Of a stretch of 64,000 bases of DNA, positions 9,053-49,059 are shown in pieces. The position numbers and the translations under genes were made by a program. The DNA is from Anaerolineales bacterium (GTDB lineage: Bacteria; Chloroflexota; Anaerolineae; Anaerolineales; UBA11579): contig JBBDXR010000034.1 of assembly GCA_040902205.1 (NCBI GenBank), forward strand, positions 2,859-66,858, given 5' to 3'. The stretch's first letter is position 1. Every line of letters begins with the position of its first letter. Under the pieces are notes generated by a model. That model did not search any database and was not told the origin of the DNA. It saw only the letters and a program-made list of their open reading frames with translations.

Positions 9053-9181
9053 AGCGCAAGGATTTTACCCGCATCCGATGCATCAGAAAGCGATTCCTGT
9101 GGGTCTTGTATAATTTGCCGGTGAAGGCCAAGGCACTTGGCCAATAATGCTGCCGATTCCCTTCGGCCAAGTGACACCTAG

Positions 9182-10090
9182 ATGAGACCCCCACTAATCC
9201 AGAGAGTTACCCGAAAACTTGGACGCATAGGTGCCACGACCGTTTATCGCATAACAGGTCGCTGGGATGAGGATTTTAATCCTATCTTCGTATGCGGCGC
9301 ATCTGGAGCAGGCACTTCCTTATTGCGAGGCTTATTGGACCAGAATTTCGACGTAGCGGCCTCACTAGTGGAAAGCGCCCGGAGCGTGGCGGAGGACTCC
9401 ACACTTTATGTAGGTCCCGCACACCATTATGGAAATATCGATGAATATTTGCAGGCTTTATATTTTCCTTCTGGGACTACTGTGGATCAAGTTCGAGAAG
9501 ACAGTTTGTCGCTTTACCGCCGTTTCGTTCGGCACCCGAAGCGCTCTTCGGTCGTCATTGATAAATCAGCTAATTCGCATTTGGTGCGGGCTGAGCATCT
9601 GGCGGCGGCTTTCCCCCCCGGGCGCTTCATCCTTATTTTGCGCAACCCCATCACTACCATCGAAGGATTTCGACGAAAATGGCATTTGTTTATGAATGCC
9701 GATTTAACCGAATTATGTGATTTTTGGTTGGAATTGCACCGCACCTTTCTTCAGCAAAGCGTTGCATTTTCGGATAGGGTTATCGGTCTTACATTTGACG
9801 ACCTAATGCGCGATTCGGTGAGCAATGTTCAATGGATTGGGCAATGGGCAGATCTCGCGCCCAGGAGGGAAAAATATCCATATCAGGATGAATCTAATAA
9901 GCCGGGAAGGGGACTGCGAAATGTAGTCCAGGGCGAGATCCGCGTTGACGAAAGCGCGGAGCAAGATTCGTTATCACGAATATCCGCTTCCGACAAAGAG
10001 ACGATTCAAGAACGAATAGGGGATACCTATCAGGATTTAATCGATCACATCGCTGACTGGAAAAACATGGCTGAGAAGCCCGAAAGGTAA
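9182..10090 (+). CDS. sulfotransferase-family protein
   Basis: 302 aa with a PAPS-binding-loop-like CGASGAGTSLLRGLL and a later ILILRNP motif. Visibly lower GC than its neighbours. Confidence 0.7.
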   Translation: MRPPLIQRVTRKLGRIGATTVYRITGRWDEDFNPIFVCGASGAGTSLLRGLLDQNFDVAASLVESARSVAEDSTLYVGPAHHYGNIDEYLQALYFPSGTTVDQVREDSLSLYRRFVRHPKRSSVVIDKSANSHLVRAEHLAAAFPPGRFILILRNPITTIEGFRRKWHLFMNADLTELCDFWLELHRTFLQQSVAFSDRVIGLTFDDLMRDSVSNVQWIGQWADLAPRREKYPYQDESNKPGRGLRNVVQGEIRVDESAEQDSLSRISASDKETIQERIGDTYQDLIDHIADWKNMAEKPER

Positions 10091-41638: not shown

Positions 41639-43153
41639 ATGCGATTATACATCCTGCTCTTCTTCGTACTCTTGCTGCTCTCGGCTTGTGCCCCAGCCGT
41701 CGCACCTGCCGAGGCCATCTCCGTCACCATCAGCTTCGATGGCGATTCCCGCTCACTGACCCTGCCAGCTGGCAGCCGCGTGCGCGATGCCATCGCCTCA
41801 GCTGCCATTGAACTCGGCGACCTGGACCGCAGCGAGCCGCCATCCTACACGGAACTGACCGATGGCGATGAGGTCCGCGTCATCCGCGTCACAGAAGAAT
41901 TCGAGACCGAACAATCCACCCTGCCTTTCATTTCGCGCACCCTGCCCAATGAGTCGCTGCCCGTCGGCGAGCAGCGCCTGGTACAGAACGGCGCTAACGG
42001 CCTGCGTGAAGTCCATTATCGTCTGCTCTTCGAAGATGGCGAACTCGTCTCCCGCACCGAGGTCGACTCGGCCGTCCTCACCCAGCCGGTCGAGGAGATC
42101 ATCATGATCGGCGCGCAATCGACCTTCAGCTCCGTGGAGCTCAGCGGCCGCTTGGCCTTCCTCTCCGCCGGCAATGCCTGGGTGCTCGAGCGAAGCAGCG
42201 GAAGCCGCCGCGCCGTGGCCATCACCGGCGATCTCGACGGTCGTATCTTCGAGGTCTCGCCGAACGGCGAGTGGTTGTTGTTTTCGCGCACCAGTTCTTC
42301 GGATGGCGACATCAACGAGTTGTGGGTCGCCCGCCTCGATGAAGGCGACCAGTTCCTCATTGATCTGAATGTCAGCAATGTGGTCCATTATGCAGGCTGG
42401 GTTCCCGGAGACGAATACCAGGTGGCCTTCTCCACCGTCGAGCCCTCGCCCAACCCTCCGGGTTGGCAAGCCAACAACGATCTGCAGTCCCTCACCTTTA
42501 CCGACGCGGGGCAGGTAGCTGAGCTCGAGATTCTGCTTAGCCCGCGCGAAGACGGCTTCTACGCCTGGTGGGGCACCAGCTACGCCTCGTCGCCTTCCGG
42601 CGAGCAACTCGCTTTCTCGCGCCCGGATGGGGTGGGGACCGTGAATCTTGATTCCGATTCCCTCGACGTGTGGTTCACGCTGCCCGCCTTCCAAACCGGC
42701 AGCGATTGGGCCTGGATCCCCGGCCTTTCCTGGCTTGACGATGACAGCTTTTATTACGTCCGCTACGCGCTCAACCCGCCCAGCTTCGCGTTGGTGCTCA
42801 CCGGCCCCGGTGGCAGCACGCAGATCGCCGCCGACGTCGGCATGTTCGCTTATCCGGCCGCGGAACAGGATGGCGGCCAGGTTGCCTTCCTGCGCGCCTT
42901 CATTCCCGCGCAAAGCGATATCAGCACCTATGAGCTGATGGTGGCCACTTCCGAAGGCGTCACCGCCTCCTTGTTCCCACCCGAAGGCGCCGCGGGTCTC
43001 CAGCCGCACCAGGTGGCCTGGTCGCCCTCTGCCGAAAGCGGACCCATGATCGCCTTCGTGTACGAGGGCAATCTTTGGGTCGTCAACGTCCTCACCGGCC
43101 AGGCGCAGCAGCTCACTGGCGATGGCTTGGTCAGCCGCCTCTCGTGGCGCTAG
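41639..43153 (+). CDS. lipoprotein with G5-like domain and TolB-like beta-propeller region
   Basis: Lipobox LLLSAC, then a region resembling a G5 domain (VGEQRLVQNGANGLREVHY), then WD40-like propeller repeats. Confidence 0.75.
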   Translation: MRLYILLFFVLLLLSACAPAVAPAEAISVTISFDGDSRSLTLPAGSRVRDAIASAAIELGDLDRSEPPSYTELTDGDEVRVIRVTEEFETEQSTLPFISRTLPNESLPVGEQRLVQNGANGLREVHYRLLFEDGELVSRTEVDSAVLTQPVEEIIMIGAQSTFSSVELSGRLAFLSAGNAWVLERSSGSRRAVAITGDLDGRIFEVSPNGEWLLFSRTSSSDGDINELWVARLDEGDQFLIDLNVSNVVHYAGWVPGDEYQVAFSTVEPSPNPPGWQANNDLQSLTFTDAGQVAELEILLSPREDGFYAWWGTSYASSPSGEQLAFSRPDGVGTVNLDSDSLDVWFTLPAFQTGSDWAWIPGLSWLDDDSFYYVRYALNPPSFALVLTGPGGSTQIAADVGMFAYPAAEQDGGQVAFLRAFIPAQSDISTYELMVATSEGVTASLFPPEGAAGLQPHQVAWSPSAESGPMIAFVYEGNLWVVNVLTGQAQQLTGDGLVSRLSWR

Positions 43154-43204
43154 ATTGTTGCGCATGCTAAAATCCCGCGCCATCACCATGCCATCCCCTT
43201 CTTT

Positions 43205-43288
43205 GTCATTCCGAGCGAGGGCGTCTTGCGCCGCCTTTAGCGGCGCAGCCCAGAGCCTGCCCTTGAGCGAAGCGAAGGGAGGAATCCC
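43205..43288. repeat. solo repeat R1 (GTCATTCCGAGC... family) with internal hairpin
   Basis: GTCATTCCGAGCGAGG, the hairpin GCGCCGC-CTTTA-GCGGCGC (43228-43246), then TGAGCGAAGCGAAGGGAGGAATCCC. Related to R2 at 48426-48510. Confidence 0.7.
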
Positions 43289-43345
43289 TTTGGGTTTTCT
43301 TCAAAACGTGCATACACTAGAGAGTAGGGCGGTTTCAAGTTGACC

Positions 43346-43492
43346 ATGCGCATCCTCGTAACCGGCGCCGCCGGCTTCCTCGGCTCCCATCTCTGCGACC
43401 GCCTCCTGGCCGAAGGCCACGAAGCCTGTCCTGAGCGAAGCGAAGGATCGTCGGCATGGACAGCCGGAAGGCCGCACTGGAGCGCGCGATGA
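43346..43492 (+). pseudogene. relic 5' end of uxs (31 codons) split by a 23-nt repeat insertion; reads as a 48-codon upstream ORF
   Basis: [26 protein letters not shown] | 23-nt insert at 43425-43447 | VVGMD. After the insert, the shifted frame ends in a TGA overlapping the uxs ATG (ATGA at 43489-43492). Confidence 0.8.
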
Positions 43493-44448
43493 GAGTGCTC
43501 GTAACTGGGGCCGCGGGATTTTTAGGTTCCCATCTGTGCGACCGCCTCTTGGCCGAAGGCCATGAGGTCGTCGGCATGGACAACTTCATCACCGGCAAGC
43601 CGGAGAACATCGCCCACCTGGCCGGCAACGAGCGTTTCCGCTTCATCCGCCATGATGTGTCAAATTACATCCACGTCCCCGGCAAACTGGACGCGGTGAT
43701 GCATTTTGCCTCGCCGGCCAGCCCCAACCCGGCGTCGCCCATCGGCTATCCCAATCTGCCCATCCAGACCATGAAGGCCGGCGCGCTTGGCACGCACAAC
43801 AGCCTCGGCGTGGCCTTTGCCAACAAGGCGCGCTTCATGCTCGCCTCTACCTCGGAGATCTACGGCGATCCCCTCGAGCATCCGCAGAAAGAGACCTACT
43901 GGGGCCACGTGGACCCCATTGGCGAGCGCTCCGTCTACGATGAAGCCAAGCGCTTCGCCGAAGCGCTCACCATGGCCTACCATCGCTTCCACGGCGTCAA
44001 CACCTGCATCGTGCGCATCTTCAACACCTACGGCCCCCGCATGCATATCGACGATGGCCGCGCCGTGGCCAACTTCATCCAGCAGGCTTTGCGCGGCGAG
44101 AAACTCACCGTCTACGGCGACGGCCAGCAGACGCGCAGCTTCTGCTACGTGGATGACGAGATCGAAGGCATCTACCGCCTGCTAGTCTCCGACGTGCACG
44201 AACCCGTGAACATCGGCAATCCCACCGAGATCACCATCGAGCAGTTCGCCAAAGAGATCGACTCCCTTGTCGGCAAGAAGGCTGGCCTGGTATACGACAA
44301 GGATCGCATGCTCTCCGGCGACCCGCTGCGCCGCCAGCCGGATATCACGCGGGCGAGCAAGCACCTCGGCTGGGAACCCAAGATCTCGTTGCAAGAAGGG
44401 CTTAAGAAGACCATCCCTTATTTCAAACAGCAGTTGGGGATTGCCTAA
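43489..44448 (+). CDS. uxs: UDP-glucuronate decarboxylase (UDP-xylose synthase)
   Basis: 319 aa, [20 protein letters not shown]... with the YDEAKR catalytic motif, an SDR extended-family member. Confidence 0.9.
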
Positions 44449-44449
44449 T

Positions 44450-44893
44450 CCGTCATTGCGAGGAGCCGTGTTGCCGTAGGCAACTAAGGCGACGTGGCAA
44501 TCTGATAGCCCCTTGACCTGGTACCGTGGTCAAAGAAATAGAGGCCTGCGTCTACATCCTGACCAACTGGAAACATACAGTCCTGTATACTGGAGTAACG
44601 AGTGACTTGGCTCGAAGGATGGAAGAACATTGAAGTAAAACTGGAAGCGCATTCGCAAAGCACTACAATCTAAACACGTTGGTTTTGTGGAGGTTACTGA
44701 GAGATTCGAGGATGCAATTGCCCGTGAGAAACAGATCAAATCTTGGGCGAGGTGGAGAAAGAACGAATTGATAAGTAGCGTCAATCCTGACTGGAAAGAC
44801 CTGTACGATGAATATTTTGATTAAGCGAGTTGCATTTTCCTTCGTAGGTTCAGATTGCCACGTCGCTCCCTTGCTGTGGCAATCTCCGAGACC
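44450..44893. mobile_element. decayed copy (E1) of the GIY-YIG/inverted-repeat unit
   Basis: The left end CCGTCATTGCGAGGAG plus hairpin GTTGCC-GTA-GGCAAC matches the E2 end. There is a perfect 17-bp inverted repeat, GCGACGTGGCAATCTGA (44489-44505) and its complement (44850-44866). The outer right repeat is degenerate. Confidence 0.6.
44526..44824 (+). pseudogene. GIY-YIG nuclease pseudogene
   Basis: Homologous to the 47469-47777 product (ACVYILTNWKHTVLYTGVT...EKQIKSW...NPDWKDLYDEYF). It has an in-frame TGA at 44631 and a 1-nt deletion in the T-run at 44683-44686. Confidence 0.8.
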
Positions 44894-44905
44894 ATTTGCT
44901 GAGTT

Positions 44906-45361
44906 ATGAGCCTAATTAATAGTCGCAAAGAGCAAAAAAGGTTCGTGAAATTCGCCATCGTCGGCGCCATCGGCACCCTCGTCGACTACAGCGTCTTCAA
45001 TCTCGTCGCCTTCCTCTTCGGCGTCGAGGAGCTCTACGCCCAGGGCATCAGCTTCCTGGCCGCCGTCGCCTCCAATTTCATCCTCAACCGCAACTGGACC
45101 TTCCGCGACTCGCGCACCAAGCACGTGCGCGTGCAGCTCGCCCAGTACGTGCTGGTCAACGCCATCGGCCTCCTCATCCGCACCCCCATCTTTGCCTTCC
45201 TTGGCGGCCTGTTTGGCAATATGCTGGCCGGCTTCCAGGTGCCCTTCGGGCTGACTGCACACTGGCTGGCCCACAACCTGGCCCTTGCGGGGGCTATTGG
45301 GGTCGTTTTACTTTGGAACTACTTCGTTAACAGGCGCTGGACATTCGGCGACGTCAAGTAG
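44906..45361 (+). CDS. GtrA-family membrane protein
   Basis: 151 aa with KFAIVGAIGTLVDYSVFN and C-terminal LLWNYFVNRRWTF. Confidence 0.85.
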   Translation: MSLINSRKEQKRFVKFAIVGAIGTLVDYSVFNLVAFLFGVEELYAQGISFLAAVASNFILNRNWTFRDSRTKHVRVQLAQYVLVNAIGLLIRTPIFAFLGGLFGNMLAGFQVPFGLTAHWLAHNLALAGAIGVVLLWNYFVNRRWTFGDVK

Positions 45362-45378
45362 CAGGCTGGAGAAGTGTT

Positions 45379-45402
45379 GCCCGGCGAAGCCGGGCTGTTT
45401 CT
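45379..45402 (+). terminator. terminator-like hairpin after gtrA
   Basis: GCCCGGC-GAA-GCCGGGC followed by TGTTTCT. Confidence 0.55.
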
Positions 45403-45431
45403 CCCGCGTTGCGTAGCAACGCACGGCACCC

Positions 45432-45497
45432 ATCGGCGTGGTGCTGCTATGGAACTACTTCGTCAATCGTAGGTGGACGTTCGGGGATGTGGAGTAG
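45432..45497 (+). pseudogene. relic 3' end of a diverged gtrA allele (21 codons plus stop)
   Basis: Encodes IGVVLLWNYFVNRRWTFGDVE*, against IGVVLLWNYFVNRRWTFGDVK* at the end of the functional gene 70 nt upstream. Confidence 0.8.
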
Positions 45498-45636
45498 TTC
45501 GAGTTAACTGACTAGCAACTGCTTTGTTGCGTCAGACGCTTTTGTGTCCATAACCAAGCCGCGCAGCAATAATAGCCCTCCCAAGTCCCTGTGGACCAAC
45601 CTCAATCCCAGTGTGGGTGAGCCCCTTCCTGCGACC

Positions 45637-45663
45637 TTGACAAGAATCCTCCAACGATATAAT
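45637..45663 (+). promoter_or_regulatory. candidate promoter TTGACA ... TATAAT upstream of the membrane-protein/wHTH pair
   Basis: TTGACA at 45637-45642 and TATAAT at 45658-45663 (15-nt spacer), or TAATAT with a 17-nt spacer. Confidence 0.5.
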
Positions 45664-45715
45664 ATGTAAATAGGTTTGCGATACAAAGTAGTCTGTACTG
45701 TCAAGTGGAGGATGT

Positions 45716-46333
45716 ATGCAAGGCCCAAAGGAAATCCGGTTTTTGACCCTAAGGTACTCTCGCAGCCAGGGATTAAAAGGGTTCCCCTTGGGGCTCCTAT
45801 TGCTAGCCGTCGTTCTCTGGGTAAATTTCACCTCAGGTGCTACCCGTAATCTGATTCTCCCAATCTCTTTCGGAGTAGGGGCGGCCATCCTGTATTGGCT
45901 GGTTGGTGACTATTATCGTAGGCGATATGGAAGGGTCGAGGTGACCGTCGAACAAAGGCGCGTGGACTTTTTGTATGCTGCCTTGGCTGGTATCACTGGT
46001 TTGGGTGCCTTTCTCATGGATGTCAGCTATGAACTCCCGGTCAACATGGTCGGCTTGGTGTTCGCGGCTGGCTGCATTTTCGAATACACGCGCCTTTACC
46101 GGCTGGGGAAGAGTTCCTATTTCGTGTGGCAAACGATCATAAGTTTTATTCTAATCTTGGCTGTCAGCCTCCTTCCGGTCCTTGGCGCCGGAGGTGTCTG
46201 GCTGCAGCTCGGCTTGCGCTCGCACCTCCTGTTGGTCTTGCTGGTCACCAGCGTTATCCTGCTGCTAGGGAGTTTGGGAGAGCATCTCAATTTCGTTCGC
46301 CAATTCCCGGCAGGGGAGATCGGACATGGCTAG
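45716..46333 (+). CDS. hypothetical polytopic membrane protein
   Basis: 205 aa with about 5-6 hydrophobic helices. GGAGGA lies upstream of the ATG. Confidence 0.65.
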   Translation: MQGPKEIRFLTLRYSRSQGLKGFPLGLLLLAVVLWVNFTSGATRNLILPISFGVGAAILYWLVGDYYRRRYGRVEVTVEQRRVDFLYAALAGITGLGAFLMDVSYELPVNMVGLVFAAGCIFEYTRLYRLGKSSYFVWQTIISFILILAVSLLPVLGAGGVWLQLGLRSHLLLVLLVTSVILLLGSLGEHLNFVRQFPAGEIGHG

Positions 46334-46652
46334 CGTCTTCGAAGAGATGGCCGGCCTGGACCGCTTGATCCACGAACCCGCCCGCTTGGCTATTCTCACG
46401 GCTTTGTCCGCCTGCAAAAAAGCCGACTTCACCTTCATGCAGCGCCTCACCGGGCTTACGGTGGGCAATCTCTCCGTCCATCTGTCCAAGCTGGAAGAGG
46501 CTGGCTTGCTGCGCACCGAAAAACAGTTCGTTGCCAAACGCTCAAATACCGTCGCCGAACTCACAAAAAAGGGGCGCGCTGCAATTGATAATCATTGGCG
46601 GCAACTCGAAACCTTACGTAAGGACTCTAGGAATTGGAAGGTCGGTCAATGA
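46326..46652 (+). CDS. winged-helix (ArsR/MarR-like) transcriptional regulator
   Basis: 108 aa with LIHEPARLAILTAL...LTVGNLSVHLSKLEEAGLL. Overlaps the upstream gene by 8 nt. Confidence 0.8.
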   Translation: MASVFEEMAGLDRLIHEPARLAILTALSACKKADFTFMQRLTGLTVGNLSVHLSKLEEAGLLRTEKQFVAKRSNTVAELTKKGRAAIDNHWRQLETLRKDSRNWKVGQ

Positions 46653-46779
46653 ATTGGCGTGCGCCTTCCGCTCCTTGACATCAGCCTGAATTCCCGCCAC
46701 AAATCCCCAAATCGTGCGATTAATAGGCCCATGAAAGGAAGGGGGGGCCCTGCTTGCCTGCTGCCTGCCGCTTGCCGGC

Positions 46780-46833
46780 CTTGTCAAGTTGTAATGGTGC
46801 CGTGTGGCGCTCGTTACATTACCACTTGACAAG
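46780..46833. promoter_or_regulatory. long inverted repeat carrying two CTTGWCAAG palindromes
   Basis: The arms CTTGTCAAGTTGTAATG and CATTACCACTTGACAAG pair at 16 of 17 positions, about 20 nt apart, upstream of the thioesterase gene. Confidence 0.4.
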
Positions 46834-46889
46834 CAGATGGCCTTGAATACGCGATCAAATCGGCCATGCTTTTTGCTTATAATCCTCCC

Positions 46890-47390
46890 ATGCCCGCCCC
46901 CAAGCTCGCCCCGCAGCCCGTTTCCGCCTCCCGGGTCACCATTTCCCAGCTCATGGAGCCGGCCCACGCCAACGTGCAAGGCAACGTCCACGGCGGCCAC
47001 ATCATGAAGCTGGTGGACGAAGCCGGCGCACTGGCCTGCATGAAGCACTCCCGCCAGCGCGTCGTCACCGTGGTCATCGACCGCATGACCTTCACCCATC
47101 CCATCAAGATCGGCGACCTGGTCACCATCACTGCCGAAGTCAGCTACGTCGGCTCCACCTCCATGGAGGCCGAAGTCTCTGTAAAGGCCGAGAACCCCAC
47201 CTCCGGCCAGGCCTGGGACACCAACACCGCCTACCTGGTCTACGTAGCCCTGGATGAGCTTGGCAAGCCCGTCCGCGTGCCGCCCCTGCTGGCCGAAAGC
47301 GATTTCGAGCGCCAGCGCATGGAGCAGGGCGCTGCCCGCCAGCAATACCGCCTCAGCCAGAAGCAATTGGCTTCGGCCACGAAACGATGA
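46890..47390 (+). CDS. acyl-CoA thioesterase (hotdog fold, YciA-like)
   Basis: NVQGNVHGGHIMKLVDEAG and ...TSMEAEVSV. Start taken at the second ATG (46890), though 46866 is also possible. Confidence 0.85.
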   Translation: MPAPKLAPQPVSASRVTISQLMEPAHANVQGNVHGGHIMKLVDEAGALACMKHSRQRVVTVVIDRMTFTHPIKIGDLVTITAEVSYVGSTSMEAEVSVKAENPTSGQAWDTNTAYLVYVALDELGKPVRVPPLLAESDFERQRMEQGAARQQYRLSQKQLASATKR

Positions 47391-47397
47391 TCTTCCA

Positions 47398-47851
47398 CCG
47401 TCATTGCGAGGAAGGCCGAATGTAAATGAGGCCGACGAAGCAATCCGTGCGCTGCTTAAAGGGCTAAGATGCGGAGAGACCAAGACGCCTGTGTGTACAT
47501 CCTTACGAACTGGAAACATACCGCTTTCTATACTGGTGTAACCAATGACCTGCAGCGACGAATAGAACAGCACAAAACCAAGGGAGGAGGTCAATTCACA
47601 AGAAAGTACAACCTTACTAAACTTGTATTTGTGGAAGTTACAGAGCGAATCGAAGATGCCATTGCTGGGGAAAAACAGATAAAGGGAGGTTCGCGTCAAG
47701 ACAAAATCGACCTAATAAATAAAATGAACCCCGAATGGAATGATCTCTACGATGAGTACTTCGCAATCAGTGAATGACTTGTCTGCTCGAATAGAATGGA
47801 CTAGATTGCTTCGTCGGCGTTGCCTTGGCAACGCACTCCTCGCAATGACGG
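47398..47851. mobile_element. compact GIY-YIG unit (E2) bounded by nested perfect inverted repeats
   Basis: Outer inverted repeat: CCGTCATTGCGAGGA (47398-47412) and TCCTCGCAATGACGG (47837-47851). Inner inverted repeat: GCCGACGAAGCAATC (47431-47445) and GATTGCTTCGTCGGC (47804-47818). Hairpin: GCGTTGCC-TT-GGCAACGC (47817-47834). Confidence 0.65.
47469..47777 (+). CDS. GIY-YIG nuclease family protein (small, stand-alone)
   Basis: 102 aa with VYILTN...FYTGVTNDLQRRIEQH...AIAGEKQIKG, the GIY-YIG core. Lower GC than the flanking genes. Confidence 0.85.
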   Translation: MRRDQDACVYILTNWKHTAFYTGVTNDLQRRIEQHKTKGGGQFTRKYNLTKLVFVEVTERIEDAIAGEKQIKGGSRQDKIDLINKMNPEWNDLYDEYFAISE

Positions 47852-47858
47852 TGCGGCC

Positions 47859-48422
47859 TTGAAGCCCCTTCGCGTCGTCGCCGGCTTCGCTCGCGGCCTG
47901 CATCTGCGCTCCGTCCCCGGCGATAAAACCCGCCCCATCACCGACCGCGCCAAAGAATCATTGTTCAACATCTTGCGCCCGTTTTTACAGGGCGCCGCTT
48001 TCCTGGATCTCTTCGCCGGCACTGGCGCCGTCGGCATCGAAGCCCTAAGCCAGGGGGCTGCCTTCGTTCGCTTCATCGATAACCAGCGCGTCGCCGTGGA
48101 GACCATCAGCGCCAACCTGGCGGTCACCAAGTTAGGGGAGGGAGCTCACGTTCTGCAAACCGACGCCTTTGCGCACCTGGCGGGCAAACCCGACCGCACC
48201 TTCGATTACGTCTTCATCGCTCCACCGCAATACCACGGCCTTTGGAAGCAGGCGCTCCTGGCGCTGGATGCAAATCCGGGCTGGCTGGTAGCGGACGCCT
48301 GGGTCATCGTCCAGCTCGACCCCAGCGAATACGAACAACTCGTCCTCGCCAACCTCGACGAATTCGACCAGCGGAAATATGGCAAGGTGTTGCTTGTCTT
48401 CTTTGAAAGGAGAGCTTCTTAA
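47859..48422 (+). CDS. rsmD: 16S rRNA (guanine966-N2)-methyltransferase RsmD
   Basis: LRVVAGFARGLHL...RPITDRAKESLFNIL...FLDLFAGTGAVGIEALSQGA. There is no ATG, so I propose TTG at 47859. The ORF upstream of that is translated repeat sequence. Confidence 0.85.
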   Translation: MKPLRVVAGFARGLHLRSVPGDKTRPITDRAKESLFNILRPFLQGAAFLDLFAGTGAVGIEALSQGAAFVRFIDNQRVAVETISANLAVTKLGEGAHVLQTDAFAHLAGKPDRTFDYVFIAPPQYHGLWKQALLALDANPGWLVADAWVIVQLDPSEYEQLVLANLDEFDQRKYGKVLLVFFERRAS

Positions 48423-48425
48423 TTT

Positions 48426-48510
48426 GTCATTCCGAGCAGGCGCCGTCCTGAGCGAAGGCGAAGGAGCGCCTAGCGCTGCCTTTAGCGGCGCTGCCCGACG
48501 AGGAATTCAC
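48426..48510. repeat. solo repeat R2 (GTCATTCCGAGC... family) with internal hairpins
   Basis: GTCATTCCGAGCAGG, the core GTCCTGAGCGAAGGCGAAGGA, the hairpin AGCGCTGC-CTTTA-GCGGCGCT, then CGACGAGGAATTCAC. Starts 4 nt after the rsmD stop. Confidence 0.7.
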
Positions 48511-48558
48511 ACAGCTTAACTAATAAATGGCGTTCACTGTAAAAGGGGGTTTCGATGA

Positions 48559-49059
48559 TTAGCTATCAAATTCCATTACCAATTTGCCCGCCTCATCGTA
48601 CGAATACTTTCCCCACAAGGGCGCATCCCCTCGTTTCATCGTCAGCACCTTGGGTAGCAGGGAGGGGATATCTTCCACCATCGGCAATTCTGCCATCCTG
48701 CTCACCGGCACCCAGGCGATCTCTCCTTCAGATGAAGAGGTTGGCTCGCCAACTGCTTCACCACGGAAGACCCACATCGCAATTCCCGTTTCCGCGTCCC
48801 CCGTATCAATCGCCACCGTTGCGCATAGCCACAATCCCTCGGCAGTCAGGCCGCTTTCCTCTTCGACTTCGCGCCGCGCCGCGCCCAACACGCTCTCGCC
48901 GCGCTCCACGTGGCCGCCCATCCCGTTGTACAGGTTCGGGAACACTTTTCGATCAGCGCCGCGCTTGATCAGCAACACTTCATCCCCGCGGGTCAGGAAC
49001 ACCAACACGCGGGGAATGAACTGGTAGCGCGCCTTATCAGGAGCTTGAGGGGATGACAT
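48559..49059 (-). CDS. NUDIX hydrolase
   Basis: NUDIX box GGHVERGESVLGAARREVEEESGL. Start taken at ATG 49059; the ORF extends to a TTG at 49095. Confidence 0.85.
   Translation of the reverse strand: MSSPQAPDKARYQFIPRVLVFLTRGDEVLLIKRGADRKVFPNLYNGMGGHVERGESVLGAARREVEEESGLTAEGLWLCATVAIDTGDAETGIAMWVFRGEAVGEPTSSSEGEIAWVPVSRMAELPMVEDIPSLLPKVLTMKRGDAPLWGKYSYDEAGKLVMEFDS

Follow-up and report, generated by a model that had tools for sequence, protein, structure and literature searches.

A relic of the uxs 5' end, split by a REP-like mini-hairpin, directly upstream of the intact uxs gene in an Anaerolineales bacterium

We analysed a stretch of 64,000 nucleotides (nt) from an Anaerolineales bacterium (assembly GCA_040902205.1, contig JBBDXR010000034.1; hereafter the window), in which the intact uxs gene, encoding a predicted UDP-glucuronic acid decarboxylase (UXS), is preceded by a second, broken copy of its own first 31 codons, the copy being split by a 23-nt insert that can fold into a small hairpin. 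The kind of structure is already known: a gene-end relic from imprecise recombination, combined with the insertion of a unit resembling a repetitive extragenic palindromic (REP) element. Homology-facilitated illegitimate recombination and 'minimal mobile element' replacement occur in natural transformation in Acinetobacter, Streptococcus pneumoniae and Neisseria. Homology anchors one end of the incoming DNA, an illegitimate join attaches its other end, and short duplicates or relics of gene ends remain. The window locus is alike in being a mosaic of segments of differing ancestry flanked by short repeats, and unlike in that no donor was found among 87 uxs loci. Single-strand insertion of the IS200/IS605 and RAYT (REP-associated tyrosine transposase) type involves a hairpin element and a conserved short 5' flank and leaves no target-site duplication. 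The 23-nt insert resembles this in its hairpin, its RRAG 5' flank and the lack of a target duplication, and here too filled and empty sites can be compared. It differs in being far smaller (23 nt) than any autonomous element and in having no recurrent enzyme gene near 120 metagenome copies.

The closest described repeats are the CGTC-tagged REP elements, which include Neisseria dRS3 and Rickettsia RPE-4/RPE-6. According to Di Nocera, De Gregorio & Rocco (2013; PMC3733652), these are short dispersed hairpins that are mostly intergenic, sometimes located in genes and often near the N-terminus, and they are defined as palindromes of 20-40 bp whose stem opens with A-T pairs and which carry CGTC (or TGTC/CCTC) as an unpaired tag at one end. 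The families described there have stems of 8-9 bp and loops of 4-5 nt. RAYTs are discussed there too, no dedicated transposase is known for the CGTC-tagged elements, and CGTC repeats in Chloroflexi are not listed in that paper. Several elements of the window, namely two that we call R1 and R2 and those at 47400, 47835 and 48426, likewise start with (C/T)GTC followed by an AT-initial stem. The 23-nt insert is also a short palindromic stem-loop, but differs in having CCTG in place of CGTCA, a 4 + 2 bp stem and tandem G.A pairs around a GCGAAGC core, as well as in being base-identical across contigs of 33-74% GC. Because it lacks the stem and loop sizes of the four published families, as judged from their text descriptions, we regard it as a relative of the CGTC-REP superfamily outside these families.

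The main features of the locus are listed below, with positions given in the window. L081 and L082 are two loci of another lineage and P0001 is the UXS protein that they encode.

43346-43424, + strand: uxs relic, codons 1-26 and base 1 of codon 27, recognized by comparison with the uxs start
43425-43447, + strand: 23-nt REP-like mini-hairpin CCTGTCCTGAGCGAAGCGAAGGA, flanked by GAAG and TC, its target site not being duplicated; L081 and L082 have the same 23 nt
43448-43461, + strand: uxs relic, remainder of codon 27 to codon 31; the homology to uxs stops at 43461, which is the joint
43462-43488, + strand: linker of 27 nt, with a GGAG at 43479-43482, 6 nt 5' of the ATG at 43489
43489-44448, + strand: intact uxs (UDP-glucuronic acid decarboxylase, 319 aa), identified by PDB matches and the name of its relative P0001
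43346-43492, + strand: upstream open reading frame (ORF) of 48 codons (50 from the TTG at 43340), opened by the frameshift that the insert causes; its stop and the uxs start share bases (ATGA, 43489-43492)
43456-43488, + strand: alternative in-frame start (ATG, relic codon 30), from which the product would have 330 aa, 11 of them in front of UXS; the form annotated for P0001

Spliced across the insert, the relic (43346-43424 plus 43448-43461) amounts to 93 nt or 31 codons, and its counterpart is the uxs start at 43489-43581. Our recount agrees with a preliminary description of this DNA in finding 16 differences over the 93 nt (8 transitions and 8 transversions, 13 of them at third codon positions), with I3V the sole amino-acid change in the 31 residues compared. 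The 23-nt insert, the 27-nt linker, the ATGA overlap and the in-frame period of 120 nt that is left when the insert is discounted are likewise in the sequence as described. By the method of Nei and Gojobori, synonymous differences number 12.5 over 23.3 sites and non-synonymous differences 3.5 over 69.7 (synonymous divergence dS 0.94, non-synonymous divergence dN 0.05), and the probability that at least 15 of 16 random changes come out synonymous is ~2e-8. A repeat search found the pair independently (77 nt, 81% identity, spacing 143 nt), and a Pfam Epimerase match covers residues 3-28 of the upstream ORF product. The insert interrupts relic codon 27 and shifts the frame of what follows, and its ends can be placed exactly, as any shift would be incompatible with the flanking bases. 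This anatomy supports the earlier view of the upstream copy as a dead 5' fragment of uxs split by a member of a short-repeat family. The intact protein has the full-length similarity and the N-terminal GxxGxxG Rossmann motif (present as TGAAGFLGS) expected of UXS, an extended short-chain dehydrogenase/reductase, its top PDB matches being structures of human UXS1 (4gll, 2b69 and 4m55; E = 1e-101, residues 2-316). An NCBIfam scan of the protein gave no equivalog at cut-off.

The same arrangement occurs in a second lineage. An Anaerolineales metagenome-assembled genome (MAG; GCA_040882365.1, locus L081) carries the relic, the identical 23-mer, the identical 14 nt after it, a homologous linker, uxs and the overlap, and a Logan assembly (L082) is identical to L081 over the relic/uxs stretch. 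Between the window and L081 the spliced relic (93 nt) differs at 6 positions and the 27-nt linker at 5, with no insertions or deletions (indels) across relic, insert and linker. P0001, encoded by L081 and L082 and annotated as a UDP-glucuronic acid decarboxylase family protein of 330 residues, is the closest protein to the window UXS (92% aa identity). The two uxs genes differ at 13.7% of sites over the whole gene, and their proportion of synonymous differences (pS 0.41; dS 0.59) indicates that the window and L081 represent different species-level lineages. A relative with the same tandem arrangement and equal divergence had been named beforehand as a sign of an old, stable duplication. L081 is such a relative, with 14 relic-to-real differences against 16 in the window, so the structure is old or has spread. 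In five relatives with the same synteny (a G5-domain gene upstream and gtrA downstream; L001, L083, L085, L086 and L087) uxs is single; in L083 an inserted methyltransferase gene separates uxs from the G5 gene. Exact-product look-ups of the window UXS and of the upstream ORF in public collections returned no match.

Comparison of the first 93 nt of uxs separates the histories of the two copies. The relics differ from the functional start of L083, the nearest among the 87 uxs loci, at 7-9 positions, and from the real copy of their own genome at 14-16. The real 5' ends are 18-25 differences away from L083, and the remaining pairs among these close relatives differ at 17-27 positions. The L081 relic and L083 have in common the otherwise unique codons CTA4 and GAT18, and a TTCAAG/TTCAAA motif found just 5' of the relic occurs upstream of uxs in L001 and L085 too. 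The real copies, for their part, share the derived codons AGA-GTG (positions 2-3), GGT13, CAT25 and GAG26. The GC content at third codon positions is 0.87 in the relic, 0.83 in the uxs gene body and 0.50 in the first 16 codons of the window's real copy. By these affinities, L083 being a sister lineage, the relic looks like the native uxs start, and the present 5' end appears to have a different history. For the relic-to-real pairs of both genomes, dS is 0.67-0.94 and dN/dS about 0.06-0.08, as for two functional alleles. Further into the gene, codons 125-217 (43861-44139) of the window differ from L083 at 6-10 positions per 93 nt and from L081 at 9-14. L081 is the window's closest relative overall, yet the middle of uxs is nearer to L083, which marks uxs as an intragenic recombination mosaic.

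A second gene-end relic lies downstream of uxs, where the following features are found.

44906-45361, + strand: intact gtrA-like gene (Pfam GtrA_DPMS_TM, E = 1e-25)
45362-45431, + strand: 70-nt spacer separating the gtrA relic from the gtrA stop; it carries the REP-like hairpins GCCCGGCGAAGCCGGGC and CGTTGCGTAGCAACG, which share the GCGAAGC core of the 23-nt insert, as read from the alignment
45432-45497, + strand: second relic, a copy of the gtrA end (its final 21 codons plus the stop), at the left end of a segment 93% identical to L081

This relic repeats the gtrA end 136 nt downstream, differing from it at 18 of the 63 nt compared, with one amino-acid change, and is absent from L081. Identity to L081 rises at the relic from 84% (real gtrA) to 93% (45430-46831; L081 9519-10917). 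Within the segment, pS between the window and L081 is 0.05-0.12 for a 205-aa membrane protein and a 108-aa helix-turn-helix protein, compared with 0.41-0.66 for the six genes upstream of it, from a PMT/NHL gene through gtrA. With identity jumping exactly there, the gtrA relic marks a joint between DNA of two ancestries. On its low divergence, 45430-46831 is taken to be a patch of recent gene flow between the two lineages, and the gtrA relic supports an origin of the locus by imprecise recombination.

We lean, with moderate confidence, toward reading the upstream uxs copy as the scar of an imprecise allelic replacement, in which the two copies would have diverged as functional alleles before being placed side by side. 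The reasons are that the relic looks native, that the real 5' end is the odd one, and that the gtrA relic is another imprecise joint. The 146-nt upstream stretch would be a non-coding scar that preserves the native start which uxs had before replacement or duplication of the gene's 5' part. The imprecise recombination, with an allele that had diverged, would have involved one homologous crossover inside uxs and an illegitimate join directly after codon 31, and the REP-like mini-hairpin may have entered the relic either earlier or later than the replacement. Functional UXS would be made from the downstream copy by means of its own GGAG and the ATG at 43489, leaving the 48-codon ORF and the ATGA overlap as presumed by-products with no regulatory role. 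The preliminary description had already proposed that the copies diverged in separate lineages before their juxtaposition. The allele-like dS and dN/dS, the affinity of the relic to L083, the mosaic uxs and the second relic bear this out in part, and a pure in-situ duplication is the main rival.

Several observations weigh against an allelic replacement. The nearest of the 87 loci to the real 5' end still differs from it at 18 of 93 positions, which leaves the proposed replacement without a donor lineage among them. The linker matches the 27 nt 5' of the relic ATG, in register, at 12/27 positions in the window and 13/27 in L081 (background 7.4 +/- 2.3; P about 0.04 and 0.02), a hint of plain tandem duplication. 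The relic and insert together are the least diverged stretch of the 2.7-kb alignment of window and L081, with 6 differences in 116 nt, 58-nt bins at 9% and 2% and an identical run of 52 nt, and all but one of the six changes in the relic are synonymous and at third codon positions (P about 0.006). Such a pattern should not be expected of a decaying pseudogene, and set against a pS of 0.41 the divergence of relic plus insert is impossible under neutrality (P about 1e-18). Measured against the 5-12% of the exchanged patch 2 kb away, on the other hand, it is unremarkable (P 0.01-0.64). The window relic also equals the window real copy at all six sites at which the two relics differ, and for this reason one conversion tract over codons 4-22 could explain all six. 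A recent short exchange between the lineages or a single gene-conversion tract might account for the low divergence, both being conjectural here, and with two lineages only, selective constraint is not separable from recent short exchange plus conversion.

In-situ tandem duplication in the common ancestor would involve no foreign allele. A 120-nt unit, comprising 27 nt of upstream sequence and the first 93 nt of uxs, would have been duplicated and then diverged, the downstream copy remaining under selection, the linker gaining a ribosome-binding site and the copies undergoing occasional conversion. The exact in-frame period of 120 nt and the in-register match of the linker are as this origin predicts, as are the similar relic-to-real divergences of the two lineages (16 and 14) and the apparent signs of conversion, the window relic being equal to the real copy at six sites and the L081 real copy equal to the relic at codons 6, 7 and 9-12. 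However, it is then the relic, free to drift, that stays within 7-9 differences of L083, and the selected copy that lies 18-25 away. The relic has a single amino-acid change, in one lineage, despite a dS of 0.67-0.94 between the copies, and aligning the linker locally with the upstream region yields no significant match (P 0.23 and 0.69). Tandem duplication of this kind is, in our estimate, rather unlikely. The linker likewise had no significant match in the 400 nt upstream of uxs in 85 loci. At the joint, GGCATGGACAGCCG (the relic end and linker start, 43453-43466) shares 12 of 14 positions with GGCTTGGTCAGCCG (43124-43137), which lies close to the 3' end of the upstream G5-domain gene. This match is suggestive of microhomology at the joint or of a trace of the G5 tail in the linker, in the window only. 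The linker is weakly similar to the tail of the G5 gene, with P about 0.01 for the window and no significance for L081.

A selected, translated leader is a further explanation for the conservation of the relic. Ribosomes would initiate at the old uxs site, translate through the hairpin, stop at ATGA and reinitiate on uxs, and selection on this arrangement would have kept the relic. The ATGA and the open upstream frame are indeed kept in both lineages despite five linker substitutions, the L081 ORF being one codon shorter with the junction ATGATGA. Relic, insert and linker have no indels, nowhere else in the 2.7-kb alignment is conservation as high as in relic plus insert, just one of the six relic changes is non-synonymous, and the two genomes agree at all 30 nt around the relic ATG. 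The translation signals point the other way. The relic ATG (43346) lacks a Shine-Dalgarno motif, with no GGAG, GAGG or AGGA at -18 to -4 in either the window or L081, whereas such a motif is found at this distance from the uxs ATG in 50/61 Anaerolineae-type orthologues. In the window it is the GGAG at 43479-43482, and its equivalent is kept in L081. Coupling is not needed, because this GGAG stands at ideal spacing from the real ATG. In its frameshifted tail the ORF product changes between the window and L081 (A->T, R->W and a stop that has moved), and folding predictions for the leader, made on 43346-43495, on 43405-43500 and on the corresponding part of L081, show no stability beyond that of shuffled sequences (z -0.6 to +0.5). 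The comparison covers only two lineages with the structure, and the nearby patch shows that recent exchange alone can give divergence this low. A translated leader seems quite improbable on this balance.

The ATGA overlap had earlier been taken as the classic arrangement for termination-reinitiation coupling, a role which the sequence does not support. Of the signs of reinitiation, an overlapping stop and start is present in both lineages, as in translationally coupled ATGA genes, but unlike in such genes, a ribosome-binding site stands before uxs itself and none before the upstream ORF, and the sequence points to neither efficient upstream initiation nor dependence of the downstream gene on it. 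The overlap and the 48-codon ORF follow arithmetically from an insertion of 23 nt in a 120-nt in-frame repeat. A riboswitch- or attenuator-type leader was dropped, the folds being no more stable than shuffles, and Rfam searches of the whole window at gathering thresholds and of 43100-48600 at E <= 1 gave no match in the locus. Recoding that would rejoin the relic to uxs was also rejected: inspection by eye of 43435-43490 revealed no slippery heptamer, and for bypass there are no matching take-off and landing codons 23 nt apart, a GAA recurring at +21, in frame.

The relic also affects how uxs is annotated. In L081 (8001-8993; P0001) the gene is annotated from the ATG of relic codon 30, which adds 11 residues (MDNRMAALERM) derived from relic and linker, and in two protein searches for this extension P0001 was the sole carrier. 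Since homologues begin MR(I/V)L, the ATG at 43489 is a likelier start than that at 43456, and the annotated start of P0001 is probably miscalled, 11 codons too early and inside the relic. More generally, gene-end relics of imprecise allelic replacement in a recombining uncultured lineage could mimic upstream ORFs and N-terminal extensions.

An assembly artefact, in which the assembler would have joined the uxs starts of two strains one behind the other, has a negligible probability and is refuted by an independent NCBI MAG of a different species-level lineage with the same architecture but 6 relic and 5 linker differences, by the L082 copy identical to it, by the 27 nt at the joint that belong to neither copy, and by the mere 14 nt of relic after the insert, too few for k-mer graph joining; all that speaks for it is that the window's own locus was not found in the public collections searched.

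The 23-nt insert belongs to a set of hairpin repeats that recur around uxs.

43205-43288, + strand: R1, composite REP-like element with an outer hairpin GTCATTCCGAG...GAGGAATC, a nested GC-rich hairpin and a near copy of the 23-nt unit
43273-43302, + strand: terminator-like hairpin with a T-rich run after it, located downstream of the G5-domain gene where R1 ends and identified by consensus match
44452-44505, + strand: R2, CGTC-type REP-like hairpin CCGTCATTGCGAGGAGC...CGACGTGGCAATC with a nested hairpin, read from the sequence

The insert, R1 and R2 had been assigned to one short-repeat family. This holds for R1, which contains a near copy of the 23-nt unit (CCTGCCCTTGAGCGAAGCGAAGG, 43256-43279), whereas R2 is a more distant member of the same hairpin superfamily. 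Both R1 (TGTCATTCC...) and R2 (CGTCATTGC...) have a CGTC-type tag and a stem starting with an A-T pair, while the 23-mer has CCTG before its stem and no A-T pair. The fold of R1 has a z of -2.3. As RNA the 23-mer is predicted to fold as TCCT-GA-GC(GAA)GC-GA-AGGA at -5.5 kcal/mol, the stem consisting of 4 bp, two G.A pairs and 2 bp around a 3-nt loop. A wider family can be written (C/T)GTCA-N4-GAGCGNAGCGA-N4'-TCTC; its N4 stems are perfectly complementary in 27 of 50 members, for which the chance expectation is 1 in 256, and 17 of these 27 paired members carry GTCA. About 6 family members are located between 43.2 and 48.5 kb of the 64-kb window.

Outside the locus, the exact 23-mer was found in more than 120 metagenome contigs (L088-L207 among them), with unrelated flanks and GC contents of 33-74%; the number of contigs is a lower bound, at least 120. 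A relic of uxs was seen beside none of these copies among the matches listed. The flanks of 121 distinct sites give the consensus RRAG^TC, 78% of them having A at -2 and 83% having G at -1, and inverted repeats of at least 5 bp flank 27/121 sites, compared with about 11 expected. In the window, the insertion site is the loop of a local GCCGA/TCGGC hairpin, and the corresponding empty site is preserved in the real copy and in L083. This provides a rare comparison of filled and empty sites for a REP-like unit, with fixed ends (23 nt), no target duplication and the target GAAG^TC in a hairpin loop. The precisely defined insertion and the base-perfect distribution of the 23-mer across genomes of different GC content are the most interesting by-products of the analysis. 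From the flanks and the hairpin target we infer a single-strand, hairpin-directed insertion acting in trans. Clustering of the ORFs from 120 of the contigs gave no recurrent transposase-like or enzyme family, and a literature search for the core sequence of the 23-mer yielded nothing relevant.

A more far-reaching, tentative and on balance unlikely proposal is that the 23-nt unit is a very small element, mobilised in trans and base-identical across distant bacteria, that enters hairpin loops 3' of RRAG without target duplication, coding sequences included, and that relic and hairpin have possibly been co-opted as a conserved uxs leader. If such co-option were true, it would explain why relic and hairpin are the least diverged stretch of the locus, and if that low divergence reflects selection, a pseudogene fragment and a repeat would have been recruited as a leader, which is unproven.

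Further features of the 23-mer were seen in the metagenome contigs. Among the matches listed, it often lies between short inverted repeats or is nested in other family members. Two copies are present per contig in L102, where they are in tandem, and in L136, L164 and L166, where they are inverted. Read by eye, and among L198 (- strand, 328), L123 (- strand, 307) and L191 (+ strand, 816), it seems to split an ORF between ...LVGFSGGK and STMMASL... (PP-loop-like), and in two different contigs it seems to split the Walker B region of an ABC ATPase between ...EILLVDE and (V)LAVGD.... The net insertion in L198, L123 and L191 looks, again by eye, like 24 nt rather than 23. L191 has a second 23-nt family member 12 nt upstream of the 23-mer, and the repaired product of L198 had no Pfam match. 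Restoration of ORFs by in-silico removal of the 23-mer was set aside as a test, being confounded by the long chance ORFs of GC-rich contigs.

Composite elements of ~85 nt, with an outer CGTC-type hairpin and nested hairpins, occur at 43205-43288 and 48424-48506 of the window and at 7748-7830 of L081. The L081 element, upstream of uxs, is 90% identical to that at 48424-48506 of the window and not to R1. A unit GAGCGAAG(G)CGAAGG lies 5' of the inner hairpin in L081 and at 48446-48465 of the window, and 3' of the inner hairpin in R1.

Small GIY-YIG nuclease genes adjoin CGTC-type hairpins in this region, one of them following R2.

44526-44824, + strand: small GIY-YIG nuclease gene, a frameshifted pseudogene, found by tblastn with the L085 GIY-YIG protein as two pieces in different frames

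An association of the 23-mer with GIY-YIG genes was rejected as local, with 1 match in 120 contigs. L081 has no GIY-YIG gene after uxs, and L085 has an intact copy in the same place (9065-9364). A further intact GIY-YIG gene of the window (47469-47765) is flanked by inverted hairpins at 47400 (+) and 47835 (-).

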